Origin: Candidatus Berkelbacteria bacterium
GTDB taxonomy: Bacteria; Patescibacteriota; UBA1384; DTJR01
Direction of reading: 5' to 3'
Length of the DNA stretch: 64,000 nt
Assembly (NCBI GenBank): GCA_029865605.1
Contig: JAOUGE010000004.1
Span: 2,562 to 66,561, forward strand
Below are positions 1,532 through 58,699 of the stretch, piece after piece. How positions within the stretch are numbered: the stretch's first letter is position 1; each line of letters starts with the position of its first letter. Made by a program: the position numbers and the translations under genes. The notes beneath the pieces were generated by a model. It ran no database searches and was not told the origin of the DNA. It saw only the letters and a program-made list of their open reading frames with translations.

Positions 1532-1672
1532 CACAAAGACACGCGGTTCTTTTCCCAGCGGAAAAGCCCGCTCTTGAGAGAATTCTCGCGTTCCACCCGC
1601 TCGAAGCGGCTCGCTCGTCCCGACAAAGTGTCGGGACACCGGCTCGCTTCGCCTGCGAATGGTCTTTGTTAC
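1522..1672. repeat. dispersed ~150-nt intergenic repeat, copy 1 (candidate structured RNA / MITE-like)
   Basis: Near-identical to 30226-30384. Contains the GAGAATTCTC palindrome and hairpin GTCCCGACA-aag-TGTCGGGAC (1617-1637). Begins with CTTGACAC overlapping the folD stop codon. Confidence 0.6.
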
Positions 1673-30225: not shown

Positions 30226-30384
30226 CACGAAGATACGCTTGGATTATTAGCGGGTTCCACCCCGCGAAGCCCAGCAGAAAAAGCCCGTTCTTGAGAGAAT
30301 TCTCGCGTTCCACCTGCTCGAAGCGGCTTGCTCGTCCCGCCACAGGCGGAACACCGGCTCGCTTCGCCTGCGAATGATCTTCTT
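30226..30384. repeat. dispersed ~150-nt intergenic repeat, copy 2
   Basis: About 90% identical to 1522-1672 over the core. Hairpin GTCCCGCC-aca-GGCGGAAC shows a compensatory change relative to copy 1. Preceded by CTTGACAC-17-TATTAG, a promoter-like arrangement. Confidence 0.6.
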
Positions 30385-43371: not shown

Positions 43372-44835
43372 TTCTACTAAGAGTTTGATCCTGGCTCAGG
43401 ATGAACGCTAGCGGCGTACCTAAAACATGCAAGTCGCGCGCTTGTAAAAGCGCGGCAAACGGGTGAGTAACGCGTGGGAATCTGCCCCGAACTGGGAAAT
43501 ACCCCGCCGAAAGGTGGGTTAATGTCCCATAGTCTCCGCCTTTGGCGGAGTAAAGCTCCGGCGGTTCGGGAGGAGCCTGCGTCCTATCAGCTTGTTGGTA
43601 GGGTAAAAGCCTACCAAGGCAATGACGGGTAGGGGGTGTGAGAGCATGGCCCCCCACAACGGCACTGAGACACGGGCCGTACACCTACGGGTGGCAGCAG
43701 TTAGGAATAGTACGCAATGGGCGAAAGCCTGACGTCGTGACGCCGCGTGGAGGAAGAAGGCCTCCGGGTTGTAAACTCCTTTTCTGCAGGAAGATTATGA
43801 CTGTACTGCAGGAATAAGCATCGGCTAATTACGTGCCAGAAGCCTCGGTAATACGTGGGATGCGAGCGTTATCCGGAATTATTGGGCGTAAAGAGCGCGT
43901 AGGCGGCCAAGAAAGTCCGACCTTAAAACTAGCGGCTTAACCGCTAAGATGGGTCGGAGACTTTTTGGCTTGAGCATTTGCAGGGGCAAGCGGAATCTGC
44001 GGTGTAGGGGTAAAATCCATTGATATCGCAGAGAACACCAATGGCGAAGGCAGCTTGCTAGGCATTGTCTGACGCTGAGGCGCGAAAGCGTGGGTAGCGA
44101 ACGGGATTAGATACCCCGGTAGTCCACGCCGTAAACTATGCGAACTAGGTATTGGGATAATCGACCGTCCTGGTACCGAAGCTAACGCGTTAAGTTCGCC
44201 GCCTGGGGAGTACGAGCGCAAGCTTAAAACTCAAAGGAATTGGCGGGGGCTCGCACAAGCGGTGGAACATGGGGTTTAATTCGACAGTAAGCGGAGAACC
44301 TCACCAAGGTTTGACATCTACGGAATCCCCGAGAAACCGGGGAGTGCCCGCAAGGGAGCCGTAAGACAGGTGCTGCACGGTCGTCGTCAGCTCGTGGCTT
44401 GAGTTGTTCCGTTAAGTCGGGAAACGAGCGCAACCCCTATCGTCTGTTAAATTTCTCAGGCGAGACTGCCTCGGCAACGGGGAGGAAGGTGGGGATGACG
44501 TCAGATCAGCGTGGCCTTTATACCTTGGGCAACACCCGTGTTACAATGGCCGTTACAGAGGGTCGCAATATCGCGAGATGGAGCTAATCCCCAAAAACGG
44601 TCCAAGTTCGGATTGAAGTCTGCAATTCGACTTCATGAAGCCGGAATCGCTAGTAACCGTGGATCAGCTACGCCACGGTGAATACGTTCTCGAGCCTTGC
44701 ACACACCGCCCGTCAAGGCAGGAAAGCCGGCAATGCCTGAATCCCGCATTTTGCGGGACACGGCAGGGTCGGTGATCAGGCCTAAGTCGTAACAAGGTAT
44801 CCGTAGGGGAATCTGCGGATGGATCACCTCCTTTC
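43372..44835 (+). rRNA. rrs: 16S ribosomal RNA
   Basis: AGAGTTTGATCCTGGCTCAG at 43380; universal blocks GTGCCAGAAGCCTCGGTAATAC, ACGGGCGGTGTGT complement and GTCGTAACAAGGTA; 3' end GGATCACCTCCTTTCT. Confidence 0.95.
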
Positions 44836-44906
44836 TAGGGAGTTAAGCCCCGACCTTGAGTCGGGGAAGATCATGGTTGATCGCACGAACTCCAATTTGT
44901 GCGCTT

Positions 44907-44929
44907 CTCATCTGGTTTTGTCAGACTGG
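44907..44929 (+). promoter_or_regulatory. 3' strand of 16S processing stem; first copy of an 18-nt direct repeat
   Basis: Complementary to 43297-43314. CTGGTTTTGTCAGACTGG (44912-44929) recurs at 45846-45863 with one mismatch. Confidence 0.55.
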
Positions 44930-45028
44930 AGATTGTCCTGTATGATCTAAAGTAGTCGCCGCAAGGCGGTTTTTGTAGTTGGAGTTGGTTTTATGCTATG
45001 ATGGAACTAGATTTAATAAGGAGGATAG

Positions 45029-45844
45029 ATGGGCCCCGAACACTCACAGCACGGTCCTGAAGACATGGGAGTAACTCCACCTTCCCCAGACCCATTTGGC
45101 AGAACGAGAGAGCAAGAGCCAGAGACTTTTGTTAAGGATGAAAATTTGGCTCGGGACATGGCTGATGCCATAGCTCCAGGAATGGATAAAGCCCGTGAGA
45201 TTGAAAAAGCCGGAAGCGATGTCGTAGAAAACCGACAGAGAGTATTGGATGAATATAGCGGGCGGTTTTGGCCTGGTGGGTTGATTGGGCATCACAGTGA
45301 TATTGAATTTCCAGCCGATAATCCTCCGATAAAAAAGCAGGATGTAATTTTCGCCCGCGTCTATTGTGATTTGGCCAGACGTCATGCCGAGGAAATAGTC
45401 TGGGATCAGTCTCTTCCTAGCGATGACAAATACAAGCTCTTAGACGGGATTCAGCCGGGGATGAGTGGAGCCTTGCGAGGTGATCCGGCCGCCACAGATC
45501 TCCAATTTTACGATTCTGTAGCCAAGGGAATGGGAGGAAGGCTGGAGATACACCACGTACCTCAATTGTTGGGAAGGATAATAGGGTTTCTTGCCACGTC
45601 AAAAGCAGTAAATGAACAGACATTGAATACGATGATTGATGCTTTGGGGAGAAGGTACAGTCAGGATCGAGCTGAGGGCAGGGCCAGAGTCTTAGATATA
45701 TTGGCCCCGGAGATCGTCATGATGAGGCAAGTGCCAGAAGGCTTCTTTGCCAGTAAACACGATTTGTATGACAGATTGATGGCAGAAAGCGACCGTAAAC
45801 GGAATCCTCAAACTGGAAGATACGAATTAAAATTGGAAATCTAG
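45029..45844 (+). CDS. hypothetical protein inserted immediately downstream of 16S rRNA
   Basis: 271 aa with strong RBS AAGGAGG; flanked by the 18-nt direct repeats at 44912-44929 and 45846-45863. Confidence 0.5.
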   Translation: MGPEHSQHGPEDMGVTPPSPDPFGRTREQEPETFVKDENLARDMADAIAPGMDKAREIEKAGSDVVENRQRVLDEYSGRFWPGGLIGHHSDIEFPADNPPIKKQDVIFARVYCDLARRHAEEIVWDQSLPSDDKYKLLDGIQPGMSGALRGDPAATDLQFYDSVAKGMGGRLEIHHVPQLLGRIIGFLATSKAVNEQTLNTMIDALGRRYSQDRAEGRARVLDILAPEIVMMRQVPEGFFASKHDLYDRLMAESDRKRNPQTGRYELKLEI

Positions 45845-46064
45845 CCTGGTTTTGTCAGATTGGGAACTATTCTTTTAGCGGCGAACGATTTAGGGATCAC
45901 ACCCGCCTTTTTTTTGATTATTTGGTAAAATGAATGTGTAACCTCTGTGGTTTAGGTAGAGTTTTTGGTTATGAACCACCATTAAAGGAGGGGAGATCGA
46001 GGGAACTACTCAGCCAAAGGTAAAGAAGGACTTCCGCGATTACCCGATCGCTTTTGGGTTTGTT

Positions 46065-46406
46065 TTGTGGTGGCTATATGAAATTCCCCACCTGATTATA
46101 GTTACCACACTTAGAACTAGCAGAAAGCTGTTCTCCTTTTTTTCTATTAACTTGCTCTTTCGCACTTTGTTTCTTCCTTGGAAAAGAGACGAGATTGACA
46201 CGACTAATATGTCTCTTGACGACAAGCTTCAAGTTTGGATTATGAATCTTGTCTCAAGGTTGGCCGGTGCAGTTGTTAGGTCGATTACTATCCTGTTGGG
46301 CCTGTTAGCCGTATCTTTAACCTACGCTCTTGGAGCGGTTTCGCTTATCGGATTTATCGGGTTGCCGGTTTTAGGTGTATTGGTAATTGTTTTAAGTTTA
46401 ATTTAA
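46065..46406 (+). CDS. small membrane protein
   Basis: 113 aa with four hydrophobic segments; its stop lies 1 nt before the next start. Confidence 0.4.
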   Translation: MWWLYEIPHLIIVTTLRTSRKLFSFFSINLLFRTLFLPWKRDEIDTTNMSLDDKLQVWIMNLVSRLAGAVVRSITILLGLLAVSLTYALGAVSLIGFIGLPVLGVLVIVLSLI

Positions 46407-46407
46407 G

Positions 46408-48918
46408 ATGGATAATTTTGACTTGAAGAAAGCTCGAAATTTCGGCAAATACCGATCGGGGAAGGCGATTGAGTCGTCTCCGGTCACGGTTTTTGTCGGA
46501 TTCTTATGGTTCGCGGCCCTTATTTCCGCTCTTGTCCTTATTGCAGGTAGATTTTTTGAACCCCTTGCTTTTCTCGTGAAGGCAGGCTTTCTTACTCTCG
46601 GATTTTCGTCCCTGATTCTCTTTTACCTCTCCTTTTTACGTGCCTTTTATGTCCCCAGGGTCTATATAGACTCGGGTAATGCCGCCGAAGCTTTAAGTCT
46701 GCCGGTTATGGAGATGTTGCTTGATAGTATTAATATTGCCCGAGAGAATCAGTTTGCCGAGATCTCGCCTGTTATTCTTCTGGCTGCTCTTGATAAAAAT
46801 CAAGACGGTAAATATCTCCTCTTACGTTGCGGCTTTGGCATTGAGAAAGACACCTCGGCTATTATTGCTCAAGAAGTAGCTTCTCTGCCAAAAGGGAAGG
46901 TCGCCGAACCGGCAATTTCGCAGTCGACTCTCTTGGTTATTGAAGCGGCAAGAAAAAATGCACAAGATAACTCCAGAGGCTCGGTTTCGTCAGGGGATAT
47001 CCTACTAGCCCTTATTCAAAAGAGCGATATTTTCAAAAAAATGATGTTTGAAATCAAAATCGAAGAGCAAGACATAAAACAGGTTGTCGAGTGGCACGAG
47101 ATGCTCAAGAACTATTCCGAAGAACTGAAAAAACCGTTTTTAAAAAAAGAGACGATTGAGGGCGGAATAGGTAGGGACTGGAGCTTTGGCTATACGGTCA
47201 CTCTTAACCAATTTGCTCGCAACCTCAACCTCCAGGTTCAAGGTATCGGAGCAGTTCATATCTACGGGAGAAGTCAGGTGGTAGACGAAATCGAACGGAT
47301 TTTAGCTAAGACCGGTGAGAACAACGTTCTTCTGATCGGGGATCACGGGATAGGTAAGAAGACGATCGTTAAAGGTTTTGCTACGAAAATTGTTCAAGGA
47401 AAAGTCCTGCCCTCCTTGCGCTATATGCAGATTTTTCATGTTGACACCGGAGCGGTTTTGTCCGGCTCAAGCAATCCGGGCGAGGTCGCCTTAAGGGTGA
47501 GGAAAATTTTTAATGAAGCCGCCCGGGCTGGCAACACGATTCTCTTTTTTGATAACTTTCACGCCTTGGTTTCCTCGGAAGAGGGTGTAGGCAAGGTTAA
47601 TACCTCCGAAATTATTCTCCCCTATCTTCAGGGAAATATTAACGTTATCGGCGCAACGACGCTTGAGGATTATCACAAGCATATCGAGGCTAACCCCGGA
47701 GTTGCGGCGGTTTTTAATCGTATTGAAGTTAAAGAACCCACCCAGCCGGAGACAATCCAGATTTTGGGAGAGGTTATTCCGATTATTGAACATCGCGACG
47801 GTGTCTTTTGGCCATATCAGGCAATCAAAGAAGTGGTCAGGGTTGCCGATCGCTACATTCACAACAAACCCTTTCCCCGCAAAGCGATTGAGATTGTTGA
47901 CGAGATATCGGTTGATGTAGCCAAATCGGGAGGAAAGGTAGTTCACCCGAAAACAATCGATGAGCTTGTAAGCCGCAAACTTGAAGTGCCAGTTTCTCAA
48001 GCGGAGGGGGAAGAAGCGCAGAAACTTATGCACCTTGAGGAATTTCTGCATAAGAGAGTTATCGGCCAGGACGAAGCGATTCAGGCAGTGGCTTCAGCAA
48101 TGCGCCGAGCTCGCTCCGGAATTCAGTCCAAGCAGCGGCCGATTGGCAACTTTTTGTTCTTGGGTCCAACGGGGGTGGGAAAAACTGAAACCTCAAAGGC
48201 ATTGGCCGAGGCCTATTTTGGCTCCGAAAAAAATATGATTAGAGTTGATATGAGCGAATTTCAGGAACAATCTTCAATTTACCGCCTGATCGGCTCTCCT
48301 CCCGCCGCCGGAGCCGAAGGCGAGAAAGGCCAGCTGACAACGGCCGTTGCCGACAATCCCTTTTCTCTGATTTTACTTGATGAAATCGAAAAGGCACACC
48401 ACGATATTTCGACGCTCTTTCTGCAGGTATTCGACGACGGTCGCTTAACTGACGGGACTGGCAGAACTATTGACTTTACTAACACGATTATTATTGCTAC
48501 CTCAAACGCGGGAAGCGAGCAAATAAGACAAAACCTGTTGCGGGGAGTTCACGGCGACCAAATGAAAAAATCGCTTTTAGAATTTTTGCAGCGCCAAGGA
48601 ATCTTCCGCCCCGAATTCTTAAACCGCTTTGACGCCGTTGTCGCTTTCCACCCCCTAACCAGAGAACAGATTAAGCAGGTGGCAGGACTAATGCTTAAGA
48701 GTCTGGCCGAGCGGATGGCTGAAAAGGAGATTACGATTGAGTTTACGCCGGCCGCGGTTGAAAAGTTAGCGGCGGTAGGCTTTGATCCCGTTTATGGCGC
48801 CCGCCCGATGCGCCGGGCTATTCAGGACAAGGTGGAAAATGTTTTGGCCAATAATATTTTGGCGGGTAAAATCGCCCGCGGCTCGAAGGTAATTTTGGAT
48901 GAGAAAGATATAGTGTGA
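46408..48918 (+). CDS. Clp/Hsp100-family AAA+ ATPase (ClpC/ClpB-like) with N-terminal transmembrane region
   Basis: Two TM helices at the N-terminus; Clp_N-like repeat; degenerate D1 Walker A (GDHGIGKKT); canonical D2 (LGPTGVGKTETSKALAE, sensor-2 GARPMRR). Confidence 0.7.
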   Translation: MDNFDLKKARNFGKYRSGKAIESSPVTVFVGFLWFAALISALVLIAGRFFEPLAFLVKAGFLTLGFSSLILFYLSFLRAFYVPRVYIDSGNAAEALSLPVMEMLLDSINIARENQFAEISPVILLAALDKNQDGKYLLLRCGFGIEKDTSAIIAQEVASLPKGKVAEPAISQSTLLVIEAARKNAQDNSRGSVSSGDILLALIQKSDIFKKMMFEIKIEEQDIKQVVEWHEMLKNYSEELKKPFLKKETIEGGIGRDWSFGYTVTLNQFARNLNLQVQGIGAVHIYGRSQVVDEIERILAKTGENNVLLIGDHGIGKKTIVKGFATKIVQGKVLPSLRYMQIFHVDTGAVLSGSSNPGEVALRVRKIFNEAARAGNTILFFDNFHALVSSEEGVGKVNTSEIILPYLQGNINVIGATTLEDYHKHIEANPGVAAVFNRIEVKEPTQPETIQILGEVIPIIEHRDGVFWPYQAIKEVVRVADRYIHNKPFPRKAIEIVDEISVDVAKSGGKVVHPKTIDELVSRKLEVPVSQAEGEEAQKLMHLEEFLHKRVIGQDEAIQAVASAMRRARSGIQSKQRPIGNFLFLGPTGVGKTETSKALAEAYFGSEKNMIRVDMSEFQEQSSIYRLIGSPPAAGAEGEKGQLTTAVADNPFSLILLDEIEKAHHDISTLFLQVFDDGRLTDGTGRTIDFTNTIIIATSNAGSEQIRQNLLRGVHGDQMKKSLLEFLQRQGIFRPEFLNRFDAVVAFHPLTREQIKQVAGLMLKSLAERMAEKEITIEFTPAAVEKLAAVGFDPVYGARPMRRAIQDKVENVLANNILAGKIARGSKVILDEKDIV

Positions 48919-48930
48919 TAAGTTTGATAT

Positions 48931-50844
48931 ATGTGGTTTATGCCAATCTTTAAGAAAAACCAGACAGTAAGGCTTATCGCTTTATTTATTTATTGTAGGA
49001 TAAAAACTGTCCTTTATTTATTTTATGCTAGCTTGTTGGTGTTGTGCACTTTTTTGCCTGCAAAAGCGCTTGCTCCGCTTATAACCGTAACTGAGCTTGA
49101 CTATCAAGCTGGTCAGGGATTAGGCCAGTGTTATCGAATGGATGGTGATTTGGATGGGGACGGAATAGATGATATTGTCTCTGGTCTAATAAGATGGCAA
49201 AGCACGAATGATACCGGGCGGATTCTTATCTATTGGGGTGGGGAAAATGTCTCTTCAACGCCAGATGTGGTTATTGACGGAGAAGCCGTCAACACTCGTT
49301 TTGGTGATGGCTTGAGCGTGGGAGATTTTAATGGCGACGGTATTGACGATCTGGCGTCAGGCGCAATCGAAACGGCTACTAACGATGGCAAGGTTTACGT
49401 TCTCTATGGCCGGTCACGTGCCGCCTGGTCATCTGTTACTAACGCTTCACAGGCGAATGTAAAAATTACCGGTGACACGGATAGCCACTTAGGCAATAAA
49501 GTGGGACTAGAGGGAGATATTAATGGCGATGGCTACAACGACCTTTTAATGGGGGCGGAATATTGGGGAGCAAGTGATCAGGGTAGGGCTTATATTTTGT
49601 TTGGCGAGGATAATGATTCAATTAATATCACTGTCGCTAACGTTGATGTCATTATTAATAATGATTTTGGAGCGGGGGTTTCGGCTTTGGGGGATGACGT
49701 TTATATTGCTGATGTTGCCGGTGATAGCTATCCGGATATTTTAATTTCTGTTGGAGATTGGTTAGATGGCGACGGCGGCCAATCAAGAGTGATAATATTT
49801 AACGGGTCGGCATCTTTCCCGACAGGGACTATCAATGCTTCTACAGCCAACGCAATAATTTTAGCTAACGGGAATACCGATTTTGAAGGGTTTGGTTATG
49901 CTGTTCGAGCCGGCGATGTCAATAGCGACGGCAAAAAAGATCTGCTTGTTGGCTCCGATCACTTTATAACTACGACAGGATTGCCCCGACTATCGATTTT
50001 TTACGGCGGGCCAGGTATATCTGGAACTATGTATGCAGTTACCGATGCCGATCAAGTGATAATCGGTGAAGCAGAGGGAGATTTGTTTTCGATGGCGATT
50101 ATGACTGGCGATATCAACAATGACGGTGTCGATGATATAGCAACAACTGCCTATTTTTACCCCACGCCGTGGGTCGGCCCGGGAAGATTGTATATTTTTT
50201 ACGGCGGGTCCGGGCTTGCAAGCAAAACAAATGCTTCTCAAGCTGATTATATTATGGAAAATCCTTTGGGAATCAGCTTGATGGGCTGGTGGGTTGCTGT
50301 GGGTGATATTAATAATGACGGCTGGGACGAAGTAGGCGAAGTATATATCAAGGAGTCTGGCGTGACGACCACCCTGCGCATTTTTGGCCTCTCTCATCTA
50401 TCGCCCGTGGTGACTATTAATAGTCCATCTATTAGTTACAGTGGAGGTCAAGCAGGGGTGCAATTTACAGGTAGTGCCACCGATCCTGATAGTGGAAACA
50501 TACAACGTGTCCAATATTCACTCGATGGTGGTTCCTGGCAGAGTGCTCTGCCGTCCGATGGTTCTTTTGGCTCGACTTCGGAAGATTATTACTTTGATCT
50601 GACCATCACCAGCAATGGTTCATATGGTGTGAGAGTTCGAGCGAGTGATTCGGAAAATGCAACCACCAGCGAAGCTAGCTATGCCGTTTCGAGTTTTGAT
50701 ATTAATGGCATTATTACTCAAGCTATTCAAACGGGCATTCTCCCCGAAACAGGCGCTGGTTCGGATTTAGAACCGGCCTTGGCTTTATTGATTTTACCCT
50801 TTGTTATAACCGGCTTTGTACTATACTTTCAAAAGTTGAGATAA
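48931..50844 (+). CDS. sortase-anchored surface protein with FG-GAP (integrin-alpha-like) repeats
   Basis: Signal peptide; repeated DxNGDGxDD FG-GAP motifs; C-terminal LPETG plus hydrophobic stretch plus KLR sorting signal. Confidence 0.75.
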   Translation: MWFMPIFKKNQTVRLIALFIYCRIKTVLYLFYASLLVLCTFLPAKALAPLITVTELDYQAGQGLGQCYRMDGDLDGDGIDDIVSGLIRWQSTNDTGRILIYWGGENVSSTPDVVIDGEAVNTRFGDGLSVGDFNGDGIDDLASGAIETATNDGKVYVLYGRSRAAWSSVTNASQANVKITGDTDSHLGNKVGLEGDINGDGYNDLLMGAEYWGASDQGRAYILFGEDNDSINITVANVDVIINNDFGAGVSALGDDVYIADVAGDSYPDILISVGDWLDGDGGQSRVIIFNGSASFPTGTINASTANAIILANGNTDFEGFGYAVRAGDVNSDGKKDLLVGSDHFITTTGLPRLSIFYGGPGISGTMYAVTDADQVIIGEAEGDLFSMAIMTGDINNDGVDDIATTAYFYPTPWVGPGRLYIFYGGSGLASKTNASQADYIMENPLGISLMGWWVAVGDINNDGWDEVGEVYIKESGVTTTLRIFGLSHLSPVVTINSPSISYSGGQAGVQFTGSATDPDSGNIQRVQYSLDGGSWQSALPSDGSFGSTSEDYYFDLTITSNGSYGVRVRASDSENATTSEASYAVSSFDINGIITQAIQTGILPETGAGSDLEPALALLILPFVITGFVLYFQKLR

Positions 50845-50866
50845 GAGGTCATGTGGCATATTTTAG

Positions 50867-50895
50867 TTGACACTGGGGCAGTTTTTTTGTATTCT
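50867..50895 (+). promoter_or_regulatory. near-consensus sigma70 promoter
   Basis: TTGACA-17-TATTCT, followed at 50901-50917 by the perfect palindrome GAAGCGTTTAACGCTTC at the predicted transcript start (operator-like). Confidence 0.5.
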
Positions 50896-50936
50896 TTCGT
50901 GAAGCGTTTAACGCTTCCACACCAAATCGGGAAGAG

Positions 50937-51380
50937 GTGAGAACCTTGAGTTGGGAGTGCCGAAAGTGCCTGGAGGCAGCGATCAAGGAGAACAGGAAGG
51001 CTAAGAAGCTCAACGGGCGTCAGACTCCCGAAGGGCGGGATGCCTATGAGCGGAAAGCTACCCTGGCGCTGCGTGCTCTCTCCCTTTGCACCTCCTGTAA
51101 GTCTGGAGAGGTGCTTAACATGCGGCCGCACAGGAAAGTGAAAAACGCGATCTCTGTGTTGGCCTGTGAGCCTCTTCGTGCAAGCGGCTTTGAGTGCAGC
51201 TTCCACCTTTGCGCAGATACTCTTCTCGAAGTCATTGAGGAAGAGTACGAAGGTCGCGAGGAAGACAAGCGCGATCTCTACGACCTGGTGAGAAGGGTAA
51301 TGCGTGAGGTGCTCGGTGTGGGTACAGGGCTCAGCGAGCCCAGACGGCAGCTTTATCGCCGTTATATCTTACATCCCTAG
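50937..51380 (+). CDS. hypothetical GC-rich gene (Cys-containing, 147 aa); start may instead be the TTG at 50946
   Basis: RBS GGAAGAGGTGA, own promoter and downstream hairpin terminator (51381-51409); ~60% GC versus ~40% background. Confidence 0.45.
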   Translation: MRTLSWECRKCLEAAIKENRKAKKLNGRQTPEGRDAYERKATLALRALSLCTSCKSGEVLNMRPHRKVKNAISVLACEPLRASGFECSFHLCADTLLEVIEEEYEGREEDKRDLYDLVRRVMREVLGVGTGLSEPRRQLYRRYILHP

Positions 51381-51467
51381 GCCCGCGGTTTCGGAGGAAA
51401 CGCGCGGGCCGGCCCCACTCTCTTTATAAGTTTTTCTCCTTTTGATAAAATATGTTTGTTTTGATGC

Positions 51468-51502
51468 GGGCGATTAGCTCAGCCGGTTAGAGTGCGTCAC
51501 TG
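51468..51502 (+). pseudogene. tRNA-Ile-like 5' half (acceptor, D-arm and 5' anticodon stem only)
   Basis: GGGCGATTAGCTCAGCCGGTTAGAGTGCGTCACTG is 31/35 identical to the 5' half of the downstream tRNA-Ile. It diverges exactly at anticodon position 34/35, and no cognate 3' acceptor strand lies within 110 nt. Confidence 0.5.
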
Positions 51503-51593
51503 CGCTTTGCGGGTGGAACGCAAAGCTGATGCGGTATGATGCGCCGTGGGAGTGGAACCCGCGGCTACACCTTGATAATTATGGTCTTTTGAG

Positions 51594-51670
51594 GGGCGTA
51601 TAGCTCAGCTGGTTAGAGCGCGTCACTGATAATGACGAGGTCCATGGTTCGAGTCCATGTACGCCCACCA
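51594..51670 (+). tRNA. tRNA-Ile (anticodon GAT)
   Basis: Clean cloverleaf: acceptor GGGCGTA/TACGCCC, anticodon stem CGTCA/TGACG with loop CTGATAA, T-loop TTCGAGT, encoded CCA. Confidence 0.9.
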
Positions 51671-51738
51671 AAAGACCATAAAATAATAATTCGGAGGTTC
51701 AGCCGATATTCATTGGAAAAATAATTGTCGGCGAGGTT

Positions 51739-51755
51739 TCCTCCATCGCCCACCA
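51739..51755 (+). repeat. copy 1 of TCCTCCATCGCCCACCA (tRNA 3' acceptor + CCA-like)
   Basis: ATCGCCC is the exact complement of the GGGCGAT acceptor of the 5' half at 51468, and is followed by A+CCA. GGAGG TTCA (51693) lies upstream, but no canonical T-arm forms. Confidence 0.5.
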
Positions 51756-51848
51756 GGATTGTTTTGGTGGTAAGGACTCGAAGGCCGGAGTGCGACGGCG
51801 CGAGGCGGGGTCGCGAGCAATTTCAGCAGAAATTGACTTGTGACCGAG

Positions 51849-51865
51849 TCCTCCATCGCCCACCA
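51849..51865 (+). repeat. copy 2 of TCCTCCATCGCCCACCA
   Basis: Identical 17-mer 110 nt downstream of copy 1; preceded by the long hairpin AGGACTCG...CGAGTCCT. Confidence 0.5.
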
Positions 51866-51870
51866 TTTTT

Positions 51871-52350
51871 ATGACTTTAACCGCACATGTAGCAACGGGT
51901 ATTGCCGTCGGTTCACTCACAGACAACTCCTCTGTGGGTTTTTTTGCTGGTTGGCTTACTCACCACGTAGTTGACGGTATTCCCCACAGCGACCCAGGTT
52001 CTTGGGGAGCGGTTGGCGAAAGTGTTTTTAAAAACAGAAGATCTTTGATTTGGACGGTCTGCGATATCACAATTGCCACAACTTTATTTTTCTTGTTTCT
52101 CTCACTCTCGGGCTTTTCCACAGTACTCTTTATTTCGGTGTTGGGTGCAGCCATACCCGATTTAATAGATAACTCTCCGTTTTGGAGTAAACCGTTAAGA
52201 AAACTGCCTCCCCTAAAGTGGTTTCATCAGTTCCATGAAGTTATTCACTATACCATTAAGGTTAAGAAATATCTCTGGCTGGGAATTATGACCCAAATTT
52301 TGATAATAATTGTATCTCTTGCCGCTTTTTTGCTGTCCTCGGCTCGTTAG
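51871..52350 (+). CDS. YdjM-like membrane-bound metal-dependent hydrolase (DUF457)
   Basis: His-rich N-terminus (GWLTHHVVDGIPHSDPG) and PDLIDNSP resembling the PDIDHP motif; multiple TM helices. Confidence 0.4.
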   Translation: MTLTAHVATGIAVGSLTDNSSVGFFAGWLTHHVVDGIPHSDPGSWGAVGESVFKNRRSLIWTVCDITIATTLFFLFLSLSGFSTVLFISVLGAAIPDLIDNSPFWSKPLRKLPPLKWFHQFHEVIHYTIKVKKYLWLGIMTQILIIIVSLAAFLLSSAR

Positions 52351-52449
52351 ATCGATTCCCTCGACAGAGTTTACCCTGTTAAAGCGAACTCTCTTTAATG
52401 GGGTTTACCTATTAGTTGGGATAATATATACTTGACTTAAGGACCGAAT

Positions 52450-54699
52450 ATGAGCCAAGAAGATCTTTTAGTTGCGAAAGATTATGTTATTAAGCTGCCT
52501 AGAGCGGTTGCTTTTGAACCGAAGGCGTTTAGCGAATTTTTGCGTACTACCTCAAGGATAATGAAAAACCTTCCCTTTGCTTTTCTTATGACGATGGAGG
52601 GAAAGAAAATTTATTACGGAATAAGATCTAACAGAAGCTATTATAATGTCATTGAAAATCAGCTTTACTCCGCCTTTCCTGGCGTTGAAGTGGAAGAAAC
52701 TGAAAGAGAGATGTTTTCGGGTAGGTTTGAAAACGGGGCCAGAGCAATCCTTTGGCTTAAGCACGGCGACTTTTATCCGTTTTTAAAACACGATCAGATT
52801 GAAGGGGATTTTCTGGCTGATTTCTATAACCAATTCACTCATCTTACAGCCCAAGATCAGTTTTATTTTCAGGTGAAGATTTGTCCTTTGGACTATAATC
52901 GGATGAGATTTTCCCTAGCGAGGAGTTTAAGACTGGGTATGAAAAGTCTTAGAGATAGAGTTAATATTATTGAGGCAGTAACCTCCAAAAAGGCTTCGGC
53001 CGGGGTAAAGAGAATGGCTTACGAAGCGGCCATTGAGAAAAACAAACAGCCTCTTTTTCTCTGCGAGATTGATTTGGTTGTTTACTCTGACAGTTATGAA
53101 ACGGCGAGATTGAAATTGGAGCCGATTGCCCATGTATTTCAGAAACTAGAGAGCGATTATAATGAGTTTTATTATAAAATTCAACCCCTAGCCGAGTCGG
53201 ATGTTGATGAACTAAGATCATTTAAATTCGGCCGCCAGGCGGTTTGTTTGGCACCGGACGAACTTTCCACGATCTACCACTTCCCGCCTCACACTGACCA
53301 GGTGCCCAATCTTTATAAAATTATGTCGCCCAAAGCCGAGCCGCCAATAGGGCTCCCGACTCCAGACAATACTCCACCCGAAGAGTTGTGCCTTTTTGCC
53401 CAAACTAACTATCGAAATATCAGGGAGATTTTTGGCATCAAACGCCGCGATCGCGTCCGCCACATGTATATGATTGGCAAGTCTGGCTCTGGCAAGTCTA
53501 AACTGATGGAGTTGATGATTAAAAACGACATCGAACAAGGCCATGGTGTTTGCGTGATTGACCCTCACGGCGACTTAATTGAGAATATTCTTCCTTTTGT
53601 CCCCGAGTCAAGAGTTAAAGACACGATCTATTTTAATCCGGTTGACGAGGAATATCCGATTTCTTTTAACCCGCTGGAAAAAGTTGACCGAATGTACCGC
53701 CAGCAGGTGGCGAGCGGCTTGATCGAAATATTTAAGAAGACCTTTGGCGCTAACTGGTCACCGCGGCTTGAGCATGTCTTGCGAATGACAATATTGGCTC
53801 TTCTTGATGCGCCCAGAGCTTCGGTGATGTCGATTCTCCTTCTTTTAACCGACAGGGAGTATAGGCAAGAAGTGATAAAAAATATTGAGGATCAAGTCGT
53901 CAAGAATTTCTGGACCAATGAATTTGCCAGCTGGAGCGAAAAGTTTGACAGCGAAGCGATTATGCCCGTTTTGAACAAAATCGGCCAGTTTGTATCAACT
54001 ACGGTTATTAGAAATATCGTTGGTCAGGAAGAAAACAAAATCAATATGAAAGATATTATGGATAATCGCAAGATTATTTTCGTTAAGCTCCCCAAGGGAG
54101 TGTTAAACGAAGAAAACACCTCGCTTCTTGGCGCAATGGTTATTACCAAAATCTATCAGAACGCTCTGGCCCGTTCGGAAGTTCCCGAGCACCAGCGAGT
54201 TCCATTCTATCTTTACGTTGACGAGTTTCAAAACTTTGCCACCGATACTTTTTCAAATATTCTGTCGGAGGCAAGAAAATATAAATTGAGTTTAACCCTG
54301 GCCCACCAGTATGTTTCGCAGCTAAGCGATCTTATTAAGAGAACGGTTTTTGGTAATGTCGGTTCGATTGTTTCGTTTAGAGTAGGCCCCGAGGACGCCT
54401 TGCTTTTAGCTAAAGAGTTTGAGCCGAGATTTACCGATGCTGATATTGTCAATCTTGGCGTGAGGGAAATTTATCTAAAACTTTCAATTGACGATGAGAT
54501 TAGAGAGGCCTTCTCGGCTAGAACCCTGGCAATGCCGCAGGTTGAGACGAGCTTCAAAGAGCAGATTGTTGCCTTCACCCGTGAGAATTACTGTCGCTCT
54601 AGAGAAACCGCCGAACATGAAATCAGCCGCGAAAAATCGAAAGAAATGGAAGTTCTTGATAAACTCAAAGGCGAAAACTTCTCCGCGCCGATTTTATAA
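52450..54699 (+). CDS. DUF87/HerA-FtsK-superfamily ATPase of the TraD/VirD4/TraG coupling-protein type
   Basis: Walker A MIGKSGSGKSKLM, CVIDPHGDL (the xIDPxGE/D motif of DUF87 and T4 coupling proteins), Walker B LYVDEFQNF, arginine finger region; 749 aa. Confidence 0.6.
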   Translation: MSQEDLLVAKDYVIKLPRAVAFEPKAFSEFLRTTSRIMKNLPFAFLMTMEGKKIYYGIRSNRSYYNVIENQLYSAFPGVEVEETEREMFSGRFENGARAILWLKHGDFYPFLKHDQIEGDFLADFYNQFTHLTAQDQFYFQVKICPLDYNRMRFSLARSLRLGMKSLRDRVNIIEAVTSKKASAGVKRMAYEAAIEKNKQPLFLCEIDLVVYSDSYETARLKLEPIAHVFQKLESDYNEFYYKIQPLAESDVDELRSFKFGRQAVCLAPDELSTIYHFPPHTDQVPNLYKIMSPKAEPPIGLPTPDNTPPEELCLFAQTNYRNIREIFGIKRRDRVRHMYMIGKSGSGKSKLMELMIKNDIEQGHGVCVIDPHGDLIENILPFVPESRVKDTIYFNPVDEEYPISFNPLEKVDRMYRQQVASGLIEIFKKTFGANWSPRLEHVLRMTILALLDAPRASVMSILLLLTDREYRQEVIKNIEDQVVKNFWTNEFASWSEKFDSEAIMPVLNKIGQFVSTTVIRNIVGQEENKINMKDIMDNRKIIFVKLPKGVLNEENTSLLGAMVITKIYQNALARSEVPEHQRVPFYLYVDEFQNFATDTFSNILSEARKYKLSLTLAHQYVSQLSDLIKRTVFGNVGSIVSFRVGPEDALLLAKEFEPRFTDADIVNLGVREIYLKLSIDDEIREAFSARTLAMPQVETSFKEQIVAFTRENYCRSRETAEHEISREKSKEMEVLDKLKGENFSAPIL

Positions 54700-54719
54700 G
54701 TTATTATCTTATTTGCGGG

Positions 54720-54776
54720 TTTAGCGAGTTTTTCGGGTTTGAAATTCTAACTCGCTAAATAAATAACTCGCTAAAT
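54720..54776. promoter_or_regulatory. TTAGCGAGTT / AACTCGCTAA inverted and direct repeats upstream of paralog C1
   Basis: TTTAGCGAGTT (54720-54730) pairs with AACTCGCTAAA (54749-54759); a second AACTCGCTAAAT lies at 54765. Two more TTAGCGAGTT copies follow C1 at 56521-56540. Confidence 0.4.
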
Positions 54777-54790
54777 AGAAAAATTGAAGA

Positions 54791-56509
54791 ATGGCTATTA
54801 ATAAAACCTGCAAACAGTGTAAAAAAGGATTCGTGGTTTTGGATGATGATTTGGTCTATTTGGACAGAATTTCGCCAACCTTCGCGGGTAAAAAGTTCTC
54901 TGTTCCGGCACCATCTCTTTGTACGGACTGTCGCATGCAGAGGCGCGTAGCTTGGAGAAACGAAAGAAATCTTTATAAGAGAAAGTGCGATCTTTGTCAA
55001 GAACAGATAGTTGCTTTATATGAACAAGATTCGCCATTCGCAGTTTATTGCCAAAAATGCTTTTGGTCGGATAAGTGGAACCCACTAGAATTTGCTAAAG
55101 ATTATGATCCTTCAAGGTCTTTTATCGAACAGATTAAAGAAATACAAAAAAAAGCTCCTCGCCTAGCCCTCCTTAATACTTTTTCGGAAAATTCGGAGTT
55201 TACTAATCATTCCTCAAAAAATAAGGATTGCTATTTAGTTTTTGCTTCGTTTGATAATGAGCGCGTCATGTACTGCCGAAAAACTCGTAACTCCAAAGAT
55301 ATCTTGGATTGCACGACCTGTTTTTACGGCTCAGAGCTTTGTTACGAATGTTTTTTGATTGAGAATTGTTATTCCTTGAAATATTCAGTCAACTGCAAGA
55401 ACTGCTCAAATTCCAATTTTCTTTTTGATTGTCTGGACTGTAAGGATTGTTACATGTGTTACGGGCTTCGTAATAAACAGTATTATTTTGAAAATAAGCA
55501 ATTAAGCGAAGAGGAATATAAAAGAAGGATACCTAACTTAGGATCTCGCAAAATTCGAGATGCCGAAAGAAAAAGATTCATAGAATTTTCGAAAGATGCT
55601 GTACGCAAATATGCGAGATTTACAAACTCCGAGAATTCCACTGGTGATGATCTTATTAATTGTTCGAGATGTGTTAATTGTTATGATGTTGAAAAAGCTG
55701 AAGATTGCAAGAATTTTGAGCATGGCGAAGTCCTTAATTGGTGCGTTGATTGTTATGGTGCCGGTAACCCCGGGGAGTATCTTTACGAAGTGCACGGTAT
55801 CTTAGATGGTCATAATTGTGCTTTTACGCACGCTAGCTATCATTCGTCCCGTGTCTACTATTGTGATAATTGCCAAAACTGTCAGGATATTTTTGGCTGT
55901 GTCAGTTTAAAAAAATCTCAATATGCAATTTTAAATAAGCAATATTCGCGTGATGAATACGAAAAGAAAATTGCCGAAATAATTGAAAAAATGACCCAAG
56001 CTGGTGAGTGGGGAGAATTTTTCCCAATCGGTATGAGCCCATTTGCCTATAATGAAACCTTGGCTTCTGAATATTTTCCTCTTAAAAAAGAGGGGGTTGA
56101 GGCAATTGGCGCTAAATGGAGAGATATCACCCATGAAAAAATTAATATAGAAACAGTCATCCCGCATGATGATATATCTGTCTACATCGATTCAAAAGAG
56201 GAGGTAGAAAAATTATTAGCCTCTGCTATAAAATGTTCGGTAACCGGTATTCCTTTTAGAATCTTGCCGCAGGAAATGGTTTTCTATTTGAAAGAAAAAA
56301 TCCCGGTCCCGGAAATTCATTATGATGCACGTCATGCCGAGAGACAGAAATATGTTAACCCCCGCAAGCTTTGTAAGCGCCAATGCATGTGCGAAGAACA
56401 AGGACACCACCACGAAGGAAGATGTAAAGTAGAATTTGAAACCACATACACACCCGATAGGCCAGAGAAAGTATATTGCGAGAGGTGTTACCAGAAATCA
56501 GTTATTTGA
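54791..56509 (+). CDS. cysteine-rich paralog C1
   Basis: 572 aa; conserved family termini (CKQCKKGF...CTDCRMQRRVAWRNERNLYKRKCD; ...QCMCEEQGHHHEGRC...TPDRPEKVYCERCYQKSVI). Confidence 0.8.
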   Translation: MAINKTCKQCKKGFVVLDDDLVYLDRISPTFAGKKFSVPAPSLCTDCRMQRRVAWRNERNLYKRKCDLCQEQIVALYEQDSPFAVYCQKCFWSDKWNPLEFAKDYDPSRSFIEQIKEIQKKAPRLALLNTFSENSEFTNHSSKNKDCYLVFASFDNERVMYCRKTRNSKDILDCTTCFYGSELCYECFLIENCYSLKYSVNCKNCSNSNFLFDCLDCKDCYMCYGLRNKQYYFENKQLSEEEYKRRIPNLGSRKIRDAERKRFIEFSKDAVRKYARFTNSENSTGDDLINCSRCVNCYDVEKAEDCKNFEHGEVLNWCVDCYGAGNPGEYLYEVHGILDGHNCAFTHASYHSSRVYYCDNCQNCQDIFGCVSLKKSQYAILNKQYSRDEYEKKIAEIIEKMTQAGEWGEFFPIGMSPFAYNETLASEYFPLKKEGVEAIGAKWRDITHEKINIETVIPHDDISVYIDSKEEVEKLLASAIKCSVTGIPFRILPQEMVFYLKEKIPVPEIHYDARHAERQKYVNPRKLCKRQCMCEEQGHHHEGRCKVEFETTYTPDRPEKVYCERCYQKSVI

Positions 56510-56583
56510 TTATTACGAGTTTAGCGAGTTAGCGAGTTTCAACCCGCTAAATAACCAACTTGCCAAATAAAAAATAAATTAAT

Positions 56584-58308
56584 ATGCCTTTATCCAAAAC
56601 CTGCAAGCAATGTAGTCAGCAATTCACGGTAGAAGATGAAGACTTAGAATTCTACAAAAAAGTCTCCCCGACTTTGGGTGGAAAAACTTACGAATGGCCG
56701 GCGCCGACATTATGTATGTTTTGCCGGGGAATGAGACGGCAAGCTTGGCGCAACGAAAGAAATCTCTATAAGACTAAATGCGCTAAATCCGGCAAGGAAA
56801 TTGTAAGCGTTTATTCACCAGACAAGACCGACTATAAAGTGTATGAACTTTCCGAATGGTGGAAAGATGATTGGGACGCGATGCAATATGGCAAGGAGTT
56901 TGATTCCTCGCGGGGATTTTTTGATCAGTTTGATGAGTTATTAAAAGCTGTGCCAAGACTGTCTCTCTTTAATACCCAAACTCAAAACTGCGATTATGTA
57001 AACTACACGGCTGAATGCAAAGACTGCTATATGTCCTCCGTTATTTATTATCAATGCGATAAAGTTCATTATTCATATCTGACTTATTATTCGAAAAATA
57101 GCATTGACATAGGGTATTGTGACAAAGTTGAAAACTGCTACGAGCTGGTCAGCAGTAATGGTTGCTATGGTTGTCGGTATTCGAATCGTTTAACGAATTG
57201 TCGCGACTGCTATTTTTGCCAGGATTTAAATGGCTGCTCAGATTGCATTTTGTCAAACAACCTAACTCGCAAACAGTATTGCGTCAGAAATAAACAGTTA
57301 ACAAAAGAAGAATATGAAAAAGAAAAAAAGGAATTAGATCTTGGCTCCTATCAAAAAGTTAATGAATACTTGAAAGAATATGAGCAAATGAGAAAGGGGG
57401 CGATCGTCAAATTTGCCAATCTGCTTAATTGCGAGAATTGCGAGGGCGATAATTTGATTAACTGCAAGAATGTTAAGAAATGTTTTAGCGCAGTCAGGGT
57501 TGAAAATAGCCGTTATTCGTTTGATCAAGAGGATGGGAAAAATATCTATGACTGTGAAGGCGGCTCTTACGAGTGGGCGGTTGAATCAAACCACACAGGA
57601 TTTGGCTCTAACTTTATCGTCTGTTCTGGAGTTTTGAATTCCAGTTTTCTTTATTATTGTGAAAATTGCCATAACTGCCGTGATTGTTTCGGCTGTGTCG
57701 GTTTAAGGGGCAAGCAATTCTGCGTTTTTAATAAGCAATATAGCAAGGAAGAATATGAGCAGTTAGTAGAAAAAATTATTAAGAAGATGGTAGAAGGTGG
57801 CGAATGGGGCGAATTCTTCCCCTTTAGATTGAGTCCTTTTGGGTATAATGAATCACTGGCTAATGATTATCATCCCAAAACGAAAGAAGAGGTAAAAGGA
57901 ATCGGTGCTAAATGGCAGGATAATGATTATTCGCTTAAATACGATGGCCCCTTTTATGAACCCAAAGATAATATTAAGGACTATATTGAAAATGAGGGGG
58001 AAAGGAACAAACTGCTGGCTGGTATATTAAAGTGCGAGGTCTCGGGCAAGCCGTTTAAGCTGGTTCCGCAAGAACTCGCCTTTTACTTTGAGCAGGGAGT
58101 TCCTATACCACGCAGGCACTATGATGTTCGCTACAAAGAGCGGTTTAAGATGAGAAATCCCAAAGTATTACACCATCGCCAGTGTGTGTGCGAAGAACAA
58201 GGGCATGAGCATGAAGGAAGATGTGAGAACGAATTTGAAACGACCTATGCGCCGGATCGTCCGGAGAAAATATACTGCGAGAGGTGCTATCAGAAAAGCG
58301 TTGTGTAG
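56584..58308 (+). CDS. cysteine-rich paralog C2
   Basis: 574 aa; conserved family termini (CKQCSQQF..EDEDLEFYKKVSP; ...HRQCVCEEQGHEHEGRC...YAPDRPEKIYCERCYQKSVV). Confidence 0.8.
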   Translation: MPLSKTCKQCSQQFTVEDEDLEFYKKVSPTLGGKTYEWPAPTLCMFCRGMRRQAWRNERNLYKTKCAKSGKEIVSVYSPDKTDYKVYELSEWWKDDWDAMQYGKEFDSSRGFFDQFDELLKAVPRLSLFNTQTQNCDYVNYTAECKDCYMSSVIYYQCDKVHYSYLTYYSKNSIDIGYCDKVENCYELVSSNGCYGCRYSNRLTNCRDCYFCQDLNGCSDCILSNNLTRKQYCVRNKQLTKEEYEKEKKELDLGSYQKVNEYLKEYEQMRKGAIVKFANLLNCENCEGDNLINCKNVKKCFSAVRVENSRYSFDQEDGKNIYDCEGGSYEWAVESNHTGFGSNFIVCSGVLNSSFLYYCENCHNCRDCFGCVGLRGKQFCVFNKQYSKEEYEQLVEKIIKKMVEGGEWGEFFPFRLSPFGYNESLANDYHPKTKEEVKGIGAKWQDNDYSLKYDGPFYEPKDNIKDYIENEGERNKLLAGILKCEVSGKPFKLVPQELAFYFEQGVPIPRRHYDVRYKERFKMRNPKVLHHRQCVCEEQGHEHEGRCENEFETTYAPDRPEKIYCERCYQKSVV

Positions 58309-58323
58309 CAAAAGGAGGGTTAT

Positions 58324-58620
58324 TTGATTGTAAATATTATTTTAAATAAGTGGGTTGTGCTGGCCTTGGGGGCGTTCTTTATGCTGGTTGGCTTAAAGCC
58401 CGATTGGGTAATGAAAGCCGTTTCATTCACCGGTAAAATGTGGTGGGCGGAAAATCGCTTGGGGCGGGGCGGAACCTTTACAGTATGGAAAATTATTGGT
58501 ATACTGGCGCCGATCGCAGCAATATACTATTTCTTTACTGGCGGTATTCATTTTGACACCCCAAAAGTTTCAGATGAACCCGCCAGCTATGACGAGGGCT
58601 ACACAGACTATAATTATTAA
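58324..58620 (+). CDS. small membrane protein
   Basis: 98 aa, two TM helices, RBS AAGGAGGG upstream. Confidence 0.45.
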   Translation: MIVNIILNKWVVLALGAFFMLVGLKPDWVMKAVSFTGKMWWAENRLGRGGTFTVWKIIGILAPIAAIYYFFTGGIHFDTPKVSDEPASYDEGYTDYNY

Positions 58621-58623
58621 CTT

Positions 58624-58699
58624 GGGCCATTAGCTCATTCGGTAGAGCGTCTCCCTTGCACGGAGAAGGTGGCCGGTTCGAATCCGGCATGGTCCACCA
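58624..58699 (+). tRNA. tRNA-Ala (anticodon TGC)
   Basis: Acceptor GGGCCAT/ATGGTCC with the G3:U70 Ala identity pair, anticodon loop CTTGCAC, T-loop TTCGAAT, encoded CCA. Confidence 0.9.

Follow-up and report, generated by a model that had tools for sequence, protein, structure and literature searches.

An intact tRNA-Ile gene lies inside an older, broken copy of the same gene in a candidate phyla radiation bacterium

Textbook accounts recognise two ways in which bacterial tRNA genes are disrupted, namely interruption by self-splicing introns and loss of the 3' end to integrating elements; we know of no splicing endonuclease in bacteria. Homing endonuclease genes and introns run through a cycle of invasion, decay, loss and re-invasion; among known homing elements we are aware of none that nests in itself like a Russian doll. 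GOLLD and ROOL are large ornate RNAs of 600-800 nt that lie next to tRNAs or contain them. Integrases of phages, ICEs and islands are said (Williams in 2002 reportedly gives examples) to target the anticodon loop, the T loop or the 3' end of a tRNA gene, which is restored in the process. Group I introns are found in the anticodon loops of bacterial tRNAs, such as cyanobacterial tRNA-Leu and Azoarcus tRNA-Ile (PMC4390854), and a review describes bacterial tRNA introns as self-splicing ribozymes (PMC4390854). Disrupted tRNA genes of archaea carry multiple introns or introns with non-canonical bulge-helix-bulge (BHB) motifs, and introns are transposed between archaeal tRNA genes (PMC4390854). Split and tri-split archaeal tRNAs have also been described (Fujishima 2009, 2010, as cited in PMC10714607). 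In the full-text literature we found no account of a tRNA gene nested in its own copy, nor of tRNA introns in the candidate phyla radiation (CPR).

Here we describe a locus in which an intact tRNA-Ile(GAU) gene lies inside an older broken copy of the same gene, next to a separate foldback element. It belongs to a CPR (Patescibacteria) bacterium with a bacterial 16S, and it was studied within one stretch of DNA of 64,000 nucleotides (the window) and in related loci, designated here by L and a number. Like integrative elements, the inserts at these loci have a tRNA gene as target, enter at loops (anticodon, variable and T), keep the function and leave partial repeats. Unlike them, the incoming DNA is a whole tRNA of the same identity with its leader, not just a displaced 3' part, and the result is a nest with 5' and 3' relics, made by an insert of only 126-181 bp that has no integrase. 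Interruption of the anticodon loop, including that of tRNA-Ile, is shared with bacterial group I introns, and in L048 it is exact; however, a ribozyme core is missing, most of the insert, which is too small for one, is made up of another tRNA, and the exons in the window are no longer spliceable. As in the disrupted tRNAs of archaea, inserts occur at several loops of the cloverleaf (anticodon, variable, T and D), halves are separated, and short structured inserts appear to spread among tRNA loops. In contrast to those tRNAs, the host is a bacterium, inspection revealed no BHB motif, and the insert contains a complete tRNA. The states of the locus recall a homing cycle, since they are scattered over the ClpC tree and include pristine (L048, L068), decayed (window, L062, L012, L063) and absent (L051, L066) forms. 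Homing elements differ in that no endonuclease is seen here and the cassette carries a fresh target of its own, which makes it open to re-invasion and hence to Russian-doll nests. Finally, structured non-coding sequence surrounds a tRNA gene as in GOLLD and ROOL, but it has no Rfam match (E<=10), measures about 400 nt, and is itself a tRNA-Ile gene.

An earlier note on this DNA had reported a degenerate 5' half of tRNA-Ile with two copies of its cognate 3' end further downstream, and our analysis bore out these observations. The 5' copy at 51468-51502, GGGCGATTAGCTCAGCCGGTTAGAGTGCGTCACTG, is 89% identical to nt 1-35 of the intact gene at 51594-51670, and a scan of the 64 kb found no other match with up to three mismatches (0 expected); the copied part of tRNA-Ile amounts to 34-35 nt. 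Its acceptor strand reads GGGCGAT against GGGCGTA in the intact tRNA-Ile, which is the AT/TA swap described before, and directly 3' of the copy stands the 8-bp hairpin (GCTTTGCG / GGTGGAA / CGCAAAGC, 51504-51526). Rather than being a common repeat unrelated to tRNAs, the 17-mer TCCTCCATCGCCCACCA occurs exactly twice in the window, at 51739-51755 and 51849-51865. No additional match with up to three mismatches was found in the 64 kb (0.11 expected), and none of 100 shuffles reached two copies. The ATCGCCC of the 17-mer is the exact complement of the GGGCGAT in the acceptor of the 5' copy. The stretch 51468-51575 is not recognised as a canonical tRNA: neither ARAGORN, whether or not its intron mode was on, nor the Rfam tRNA model (E<=10) called one in it or on a span covering the pieces. 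One alternative offered in the note, a disrupted tRNA paralog, turned out to be correct: a single old tRNA-Ile gene, broken at its anticodon, accounts for both the 5' part and the first 17-mer. The earlier reading had missed the main point, namely that the intact tRNA-Ile is located within the broken one. The features are listed in Table 1.

Table 1. Features of the tRNA-Ile locus and its surroundings, in positions of the window
Feature	Position	Strand	Description
16S rRNA gene	43373-44834		Followed in order by ClpC-like ATPase, FG-GAP protein, ORF147, tRNA-Ile locus, ORF159
Promoter-like site	51423..51451	+	TTTATA, 17-nt spacer, TAAAAT, TG before; putative function from consensus match
Outer tRNA-Ile 5' part	51468..51501	+	nt 1-33: acceptor GGGCGAT, D arm, anticodon-stem 5' strand, C32 U33
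Hairpin H1	51502..51528	+	GC / GCTTTGCG / GGTGGAA / CGCAAAGC / TG; opens the insert; H family member
Hairpin H2	51541..51567	+	GC / GCCGTGGG / AGTGGAA / CCCGCGGC / TA; starts 53 nt upstream of the working tRNA
Inner-gene leader	51572..51593	+	-10-like TTGATAATTA (TTGATAAT), then left arm of helix (51579-51593)
Inner intact tRNA-Ile(GAU)	51594..51670	+	ARAGORN; Rfam tRNA model, 73.4 bits
Trailer AAAAGACCATAA	51670..51681	+	Right arm of leader/trailer helix
Outer tRNA-Ile 3' part	51683..51755	+	Alignment to tRNA-Ile 3' half; ends with first 17-mer, 51739-51755
Unit B	51764..51865	+	Conserved folded element of about 102 nt; homologue L066 10750-10859; 9 compensatory pairs
ORF159	51871..52350	+	Conserved small protein; 42-52% identity to ORFs in L051, L057, L065, L063
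tRNA-Ala	58624		Preceded, after ORF159, by type IV coupling protein, two ~570-aa proteins, ORF98

The outer gene can be recognised on both sides of the insert. Its 5' part is 94% identical to nt 1-35 of the intact GGGCGAT-type tRNA-Ile of L045, and the outer allele is intact in the relatives L045, L049, L062 and L068. The promoter-like site lies upstream of this part, 17 nt from the first base of the outer gene, and the G at 51502 may be either G34 of the outer gene or the first base of hairpin H1. The 3' part starts with ATAAT (nt 35-39), continues with TCGGAGGTT after a 7-nt deletion of GACGAGG, and ends with a 32-nt T-loop hairpin (51701-51732) and CGAG+GTT+TCCTCC ATCGCCC ACCA. When the 17-mer was excluded, its alignment to the 3' half scored 24.8 versus 11.1 +/- 3.0 for shuffles, and none of 1000 shuffles scored as high. 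Since the rest of the 3' half precedes the first 17-mer, 51468-51501 and 51683-51755 are two parts of one gene. All seven acceptor pairs are preserved, as are the D stem, in which one pair is G-U, and the T stem (GGAGG/CCTCC). Nevertheless, the outer gene is no longer able to make a tRNA, because the 3' strand of its anticodon stem is deleted and its T loop is broken by the 32-nt insert; ARAGORN calls no tRNA after in-silico removal of the insert, with intron mode on or off. The outer allele, with acceptor GGGCGAT/ATCGCCC, and the inner allele differ in their acceptor and T stems, where the changes are compensated, and the same holds in L065 and L048. These compensated differences indicate that outer and inner copies were both once real tRNA genes and not slippage copies. 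The tRNA-Ala of the same window has no partial copies there.

The insert comprises 181 bp (51502-51682) and interrupts the outer gene after nt 33/34. In order, it contains the 27-nt hairpins H1 and H2, the -10-like element, and the intact tRNA-Ile between the two arms of the leader/trailer helix. Its tRNA-Ile, with acceptor GGGCGTA/TACGCCC and an encoded CCA, is the only tRNA called by ARAGORN and Rfam at the locus, and nt 1-37 of this allele are identical to those of L050, the closest relative by ClpC. Leader and trailer pair with each other over 22-nt arms that are 91% complementary, with 51579-51593 opposite 51670-51681, and the leader resembles those of L065, L068 and L057. The inner gene would be the working one, and the outer shell would still provide the upstream promoter and the flanks.

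The rRNA operon in the window is split by protein genes, and all genes of the area lie on one strand. The order 16S, ClpC, tRNA-Ile and, further on, tRNA-Ala was seen again in relatives. Because the order of 16S, ClpC and tRNA-Ile recurs, ClpC homologues were chosen as the anchor through which orthologous tRNA-Ile loci were gathered. Homologues of ORF159 follow the tRNA-Ile locus in relatives, and a look-up of its exact sequence returned no record. The T4SS coupling protein was a poor anchor, with tRNA-Ile adjacent in only one of 12 close relatives; the block that contains it adjoins different tRNAs in different genomes. In total, the comparison covered about ten loci and a single metagenome scan with a gap of 75-105 nt, a setting at which one-level nests with short inserts would be missed. 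Three pattern scans of viral contigs, for a 5' half plus hairpin, a short-gap tandem and the unit B box, gave no match.

The clearest nests were found in three relatives. L065 has on its 5' side outer nt 1-43 (GGGCGAT...TGACG), an H hairpin, TTGATAATT, a leader helix and an inner tRNA-Ile of another allele, followed on its 3' side by a trailer, an outer T arm with ATCGCCCACCA and the ORF159 homologue. Its minimum-energy fold is a cloverleaf that bears a second cloverleaf on a stalk (z = -6.5). The same plan is seen in L068, with H at the 5' junction; here the inner gene's ends match the outer 42 nt and the outer 28 nt without any difference. In both loci the insert sits in the variable region. 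L048 is a three-level nest, which reads outer 5' part, X, middle 5' part, X, intact gene, Y, middle 3' part, Y, outer 3' part, and X and Y are mutually complementary. Its junctions are identical at both levels, between anticodon nucleotides A35 and U36, and in-silico excision yielded an ARAGORN-callable tRNA-Ile for both shells. A duplicated core sequence was absent from L048. Its cassette has no H hairpin, and at least two types of cassette must thus be distinguished. As nests are present in five independent assemblies, a chimeric assembly is an unlikely source of them.

Decayed forms were observed in L062, L012 and L063: ahead of the working gene stands a 5' part that runs directly into an H-type hairpin. 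For L012 and L063, this broken copy lies in tandem with the working gene, on its upstream side, instead of surrounding it, and remnants of the variable loop and T loop are kept, with the 3' acceptor strand absent. L062 has a 48-nt insert in its outer D loop. L051 has a plain tRNA-Ile gene, and L057 and L066 have no 5' part of a shell upstream but do have a second 3' end after the gene. The insertion point varies, being after nt 33/34 in the window and L062, after 35 in L048, L012 and L063, and after 42/43 in L065 and L068. The assemblies of L050 and L062 both stop at CACTGAT.

Hairpin H1 belongs to a family with the form 5'-GC, 8-bp stem, RGYGGAA loop, stem and TA. Seven copies were aligned, of which the window contributed two, L006 three, and L062 and L065 one each. 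In this alignment 98% of the cells are paired and all eight pairs show changes on both sides, although the copies were found through a stem search and their pairing is thus partly by construction. One of the L006 copies is nested in the loop of another. Hairpins with a stem of at least 8 bp numbered nine in the 718 kb scanned, compared with about one estimated by chance; they cluster at the loci studied here and have conserved flanks. H1 scores 43.9 bits against the covariance model R1, in whose building it was itself used, and the H model also matches L068 and, more weakly, L057. Within the window there are two strong copies, both at the tRNA-Ile locus, and three weak matches besides. The 5' edge of the insert is always made up of H. 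In four lineages the distance from the start of H to the working tRNA downstream is 53-55 nt, and the GGAAC of its loop sits 17 nt upstream of a -10-like hexamer. Across copies the loop and flanks are conserved and the stems differ. H may act as a promoter or a protein-binding module. A mobile repeat of the REP or MITE type was rejected, as the stems differ in every copy and the copies are few. Pairing of a GGUGG loop with the CCACC of the tRNA 3' end was also rejected on inspection, as it fails for the GGCGG-loop copies of L065 and L068.

The earlier note had taken both 17-mers as duplicated cognate 3' ends, which is correct for the first, the 3' end of the outer gene. The second is the 3' end of unit B, a separate unit outside the nest. 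The 5' strand of unit B is antisense to the 3' end of a tRNA (TTGGTG..AAGGACTCGAA) and its 3' strand is a sense copy of that end, CGAGTCCTCCATCGCCCACCA, for which window and L066 give the consensus CGAGTCCTCCAT[C/T]GCCCACCA. Among its internal hairpins is one with an AGCA loop, whose entire stem is swapped compensatorily between the window and L066. In L066, a distant relative, the homologue directly follows the working tRNA-Ile. The acceptor-strand copy matches the local allele in each case (ATCGCCC in the window, ATTGCCC in L066). Model R2, built from these two sequences, gives them 114 bits (window) and 133 bits (L066), and no further copies of unit B were found in the collected loci. The alignment of 51756-51865 as a decayed tandem tRNA copy with leader was only weakly above shuffles (18/500), and this interpretation was dropped because L066 shows a conserved foldback element. 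Homology of unit B to the T-loop insert of L047 was likewise rejected, the match being 10 nt long and equalled by 19 of 500 shuffles.

Taken together, we consider recurrent insertion of a self-contained cassette, followed by decay, to be the most probable explanation of the locus as a whole, with a probability of roughly 0.6. A cassette composed of a complete tRNA-Ile with H at its 5' edge would enter a resident tRNA-Ile at a position that is single-stranded in a loop, and the cell would from then on depend on the incoming copy. Such events would have been repeated within the lineage, in L048 including the entry of a cassette into its own tRNA, and would have left shells in varied decay. The nests of L048 and L068 would then be young, and those of the window, L062, L012 and L063 old. 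Several points speak against this explanation. A scan of 20 window ORFs and of the neighbours of L048, which include only LAGLIDADG genes of the rRNA-intron type, revealed no recombinase, transposase or homing endonuclease linked to the nests. The insertion point varies, and the L048 cassette lacks H. In L012 and L063 the layout is tandem, and one mechanism may not account for all loci. Lineages whose ClpC proteins share only 62-67% identity have almost the same outer 5' parts, which is hard to reconcile with old, neutral relics; it would take independent events of recent date, gene conversion, or selection that acts on the shell.

In another reading, which we regard as doubtful, the shell would be not a relic but an active component of the transcription unit: a tRNA-like scaffold whose acceptor stem, D arm and T arm fold around the inner pre-tRNA and which serves processing by RNase P and RNase Z or acts as punctuation that separates the tRNA from flanking mRNAs, with H as a promoter or protein-binding module. 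In addition to the near invariance of the 5' parts, all stems of the shell are intact in L065 and L068 and the region folds as a tRNA within a tRNA. The promoter-like site lies upstream of the shell and not solely of the inner gene, and the genes of the area share one strand within a broken-up rRNA operon. The loop of H is conserved, its stems covary and its spacing is fixed. However, a shell is absent upstream in L050, L051, L057 and L066, and where it is present it tolerates the loss of the anticodon-stem 3' strand and a 32-nt T-loop insert (window), a 48-nt D-loop insert (L062), or the loss of any 3' acceptor strand (L012, L063).

Integrase scars, a working split or intron-containing tRNA, and duplication plus deletion are all less likely than nested insertion. 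For the first of these, which the earlier note had proposed as att sites, the probability is low: elements entering the 3' part of tRNA-Ile with a copy of their own would leave displaced 3' ends as direct repeats. An exact 17-nt direct repeat, which runs from inside the tRNA to its 3' end and terminates in CCA, would fit, as would the second 3' end just after the tRNA-Ile of L057 and L066. Moreover, tRNA genes are hot spots of insertion in this family: in L047, 15-17-nt repeats inside a tRNA-Ile copy bound an island with restriction-modification and Abi genes, in L068 a large serine recombinase lies directly beside tRNA-Ala, and the block with the T4SS coupling protein adjoins different tRNAs in different genomes. 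On the other hand, standard integration duplicates the 3' part only, not a 5' half, and upstream of the first 17-mer lies the remainder of a 3' half, in agreement with the 5' half further upstream. The repeats are 110 nt apart, the 93 nt between them form a conserved structured element rather than an island, and 20 scanned ORFs of the window include no integrase or recombinase domain.

A working tRNA-Ile whose insert, inner tRNA included, is removed from the RNA so that the outer halves are joined or held together is very unlikely, and the intron-containing and split tRNAs suggested before gained no support. What speaks for it comes from relatives: the L048 insert is exact, its flanks base-pair mutually and its removal restores perfect tRNA-Ile genes, and in L065 and L068 the outer gene still has its acceptor stem and its D, anticodon and T arms. 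Joining of the exons, however, leads to a functional tRNA only in L048, whose insert has no ribozyme, while simple excision in L068 and L065 gives no tRNA, and in the window the outer exons form no anticodon stem and have a disrupted T loop. Known bacterial tRNA introns are self-splicing ribozymes (PMC4390854), yet at E<=10 Rfam reported over 51200-52100 only the intact tRNA, with neither RF00028 nor any other group I/II signal, although it does detect a group I intron elsewhere on the L048 contig (3271-4058), which also has LAGLIDADG genes of the rRNA-intron type. As judged by inspection, the fold of L048 places the two junctions opposite one another at the end of one helix and has no 3-nt bulges 4 bp apart, hence no bulge-helix-bulge. 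No splicing endonuclease or ligase was seen among 20 ORFs scanned in the 64 kb. An archaeal-style split tRNA would require a complement to the trailer of the 5' half; nothing before the 3' part provides one, which counts against the split reading. A tmRNA, including a two-piece form, was rejected as well, since ARAGORN and Rfam were negative and the acceptor has G3:C70, not G3:U70. Least credible is a neutral tandem duplication of tRNA-Ile in which the first copy later lost its 3' half and the last copy its 5' half, which would give a nested look only. Tandem layouts do exist (a broken copy upstream in L012 and L063, two copies in a row in L047), and in formal terms two tandem duplications would describe the L048 repeats. 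However, each of several lineages would have needed two matched deletions. The outer and inner genes, moreover, represent different alleles whose stem changes are compensated (window, L065, L048), and so did not arise as duplicates of one another. The L048 junctions are identical at both levels with exact excision, and H is always at the 5' junction.

Beyond nested insertion as such, we tentatively suggest, as a possibility of modest weight, that the cassette represents a new selfish or replacement element of the CPR, namely a miniature tRNA-Ile cassette with a leader/trailer helix and often H, which inserts precisely into loops of tRNA-Ile genes, its own among them, and thereby builds Russian-doll nests. 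One possible route would operate at the RNA level: after cleavage of a tRNA loop, a processed pre-tRNA or hairpin would be ligated into the break by mistake, and the gene would then receive a copy of the resulting RNA. This route would fit because the loop junctions are exact, no target is duplicated, and the cassettes have helical ends. Alternatively, a hairpin-directed DNA recombinase of a new kind may be responsible.

In practical terms, nests of this kind break assemblies, confuse tRNA finders and yield false calls of split tRNAs. The H hairpin and unit B are candidates for new structured RNA motifs. If the shell has a function, a new kind of scaffold for processing, tRNA-like in form, would be at hand. 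Our analysis describes an essential tRNA gene that would have been broken repeatedly by an insertion carrying its own replacement, in several ultra-small uncultured lineages and up to three layers deep. If the cassette is mobile, it would be a minimal element of about 126-181 bp whose sole cargo is the gene that it destroys, and would offer a clean system for the turnover and horizontal spread of tRNA genes. If the route through RNA or through a hairpin recombinase is true, these loci would represent a new way of disrupting and replacing bacterial tRNA genes.

The rRNA operon of the window is split up, with 16S, tRNA-Ile and tRNA-Ala still in order. Protein genes, 6.7 kb and 7 kb of them, separate the three, everything being on the plus strand, and no 23S lies within the 64-kb window. 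The order 16S-ClpC-tRNA-Ile-...-tRNA-Ala, in which ClpC is a ClpC-like ATPase gene, is common to five comparison loci from other genomes (L012, L051, L057, L066 and L068). The working tRNA-Ile genes of this family (positions in the table) are flanked by a leader/trailer helix of 11-14 bp, which extends over C75 and A76 of the CCA that the gene encodes. Its sequence is different in each lineage. Two independent Logan contigs (L050 and L062) were found to stop at the identical point within tRNA-Ile (...GCGTCACTGAT). Branching of the assembly graph at the anticodon, owing to a nested or polymorphic insert, would be expected to give such ends.

Hairpins resembling the 27-nt family H of the tRNA-Ile insert were also observed elsewhere. 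In the window, such hairpins with a GGTGGAAC loop lie inside a non-coding repeat, whose two copies share 89% identity across 114 nt, are intergenic and antisense relative to genes, and match nothing in Rfam with E up to 1. In L006, a comparison locus, four H hairpins cluster in intergenic DNA, where other short palindromic repeats (GTGTCATTGCG...) occur as well. One of the four is inserted in the loop of another, behind its GGTG.

Further observations concern tRNA genes of comparison loci. In L001, tRNA-Asn and a duplicate of its 3' end enclose a small ORF of the GIY-YIG type, and in L065 a GIY-YIG ORF is located between tRNA-Ile and tRNA-Ala. In L047, the T arm of a second tRNA-Ile copy is interrupted by an island in which an AbiU2 gene comes after an NgoPII restriction-modification pair, with GACGAG[T/G]TCGGAGG repeats as its edges. 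A gene for a 527-aa large serine recombinase abuts or overlaps tRNA-Ala within the tRNA-Ile to tRNA-Ala interval of L068; no gene call for it was present in the sister contig L069.

Seven paralogues of a protein of about 570 aa, 37-56% identical and with no Pfam domain, are encoded in the window, and two of them accompany a type IV coupling protein. In relatives, one to three copies of this gene follow the same coupling protein. The tRNA next to the block varies by genome, being tRNA-Asn, tRNA-Ile or a tRNA-Trp pair, the last consisting of two near-identical genes on either side of a YbaK-like ORF. These differing neighbours suggest that the coupling protein and the 570-aa genes form a mobile island using tRNA genes.

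Positions of the features in the window and in comparison loci
Feature	Sequence	Positions
Split rRNA operon	window	43373-58699
Leader/trailer helix region	window	51579-51681
	L047	26-132
	L057	12355-12458
	L068	10659-10761
Contig end within tRNA-Ile	L050	4469-4505
	L062	5335-5371
Non-coding repeat	window	1554-1666; ~30270-30381 (minus strand)
H hairpin cluster	L006	2900-3290
GIY-YIG ORF	L001	5383-5837
	L065	11652-11921
Island in tRNA-Ile	L047	151-2307
Serine recombinase gene	L068	14469-16063 (minus strand)
~570-aa paralogues	window	6349-8070; 8112-9770; 15838-17562; 17559-19280; 19277-20986; 54791-56509; 56584-58308
Coupling-protein/570-aa block adjoining tRNA genes	L001	5383-5837
	L006	1-75
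	L003	9430-10065
	L012	
	L063	
	L066
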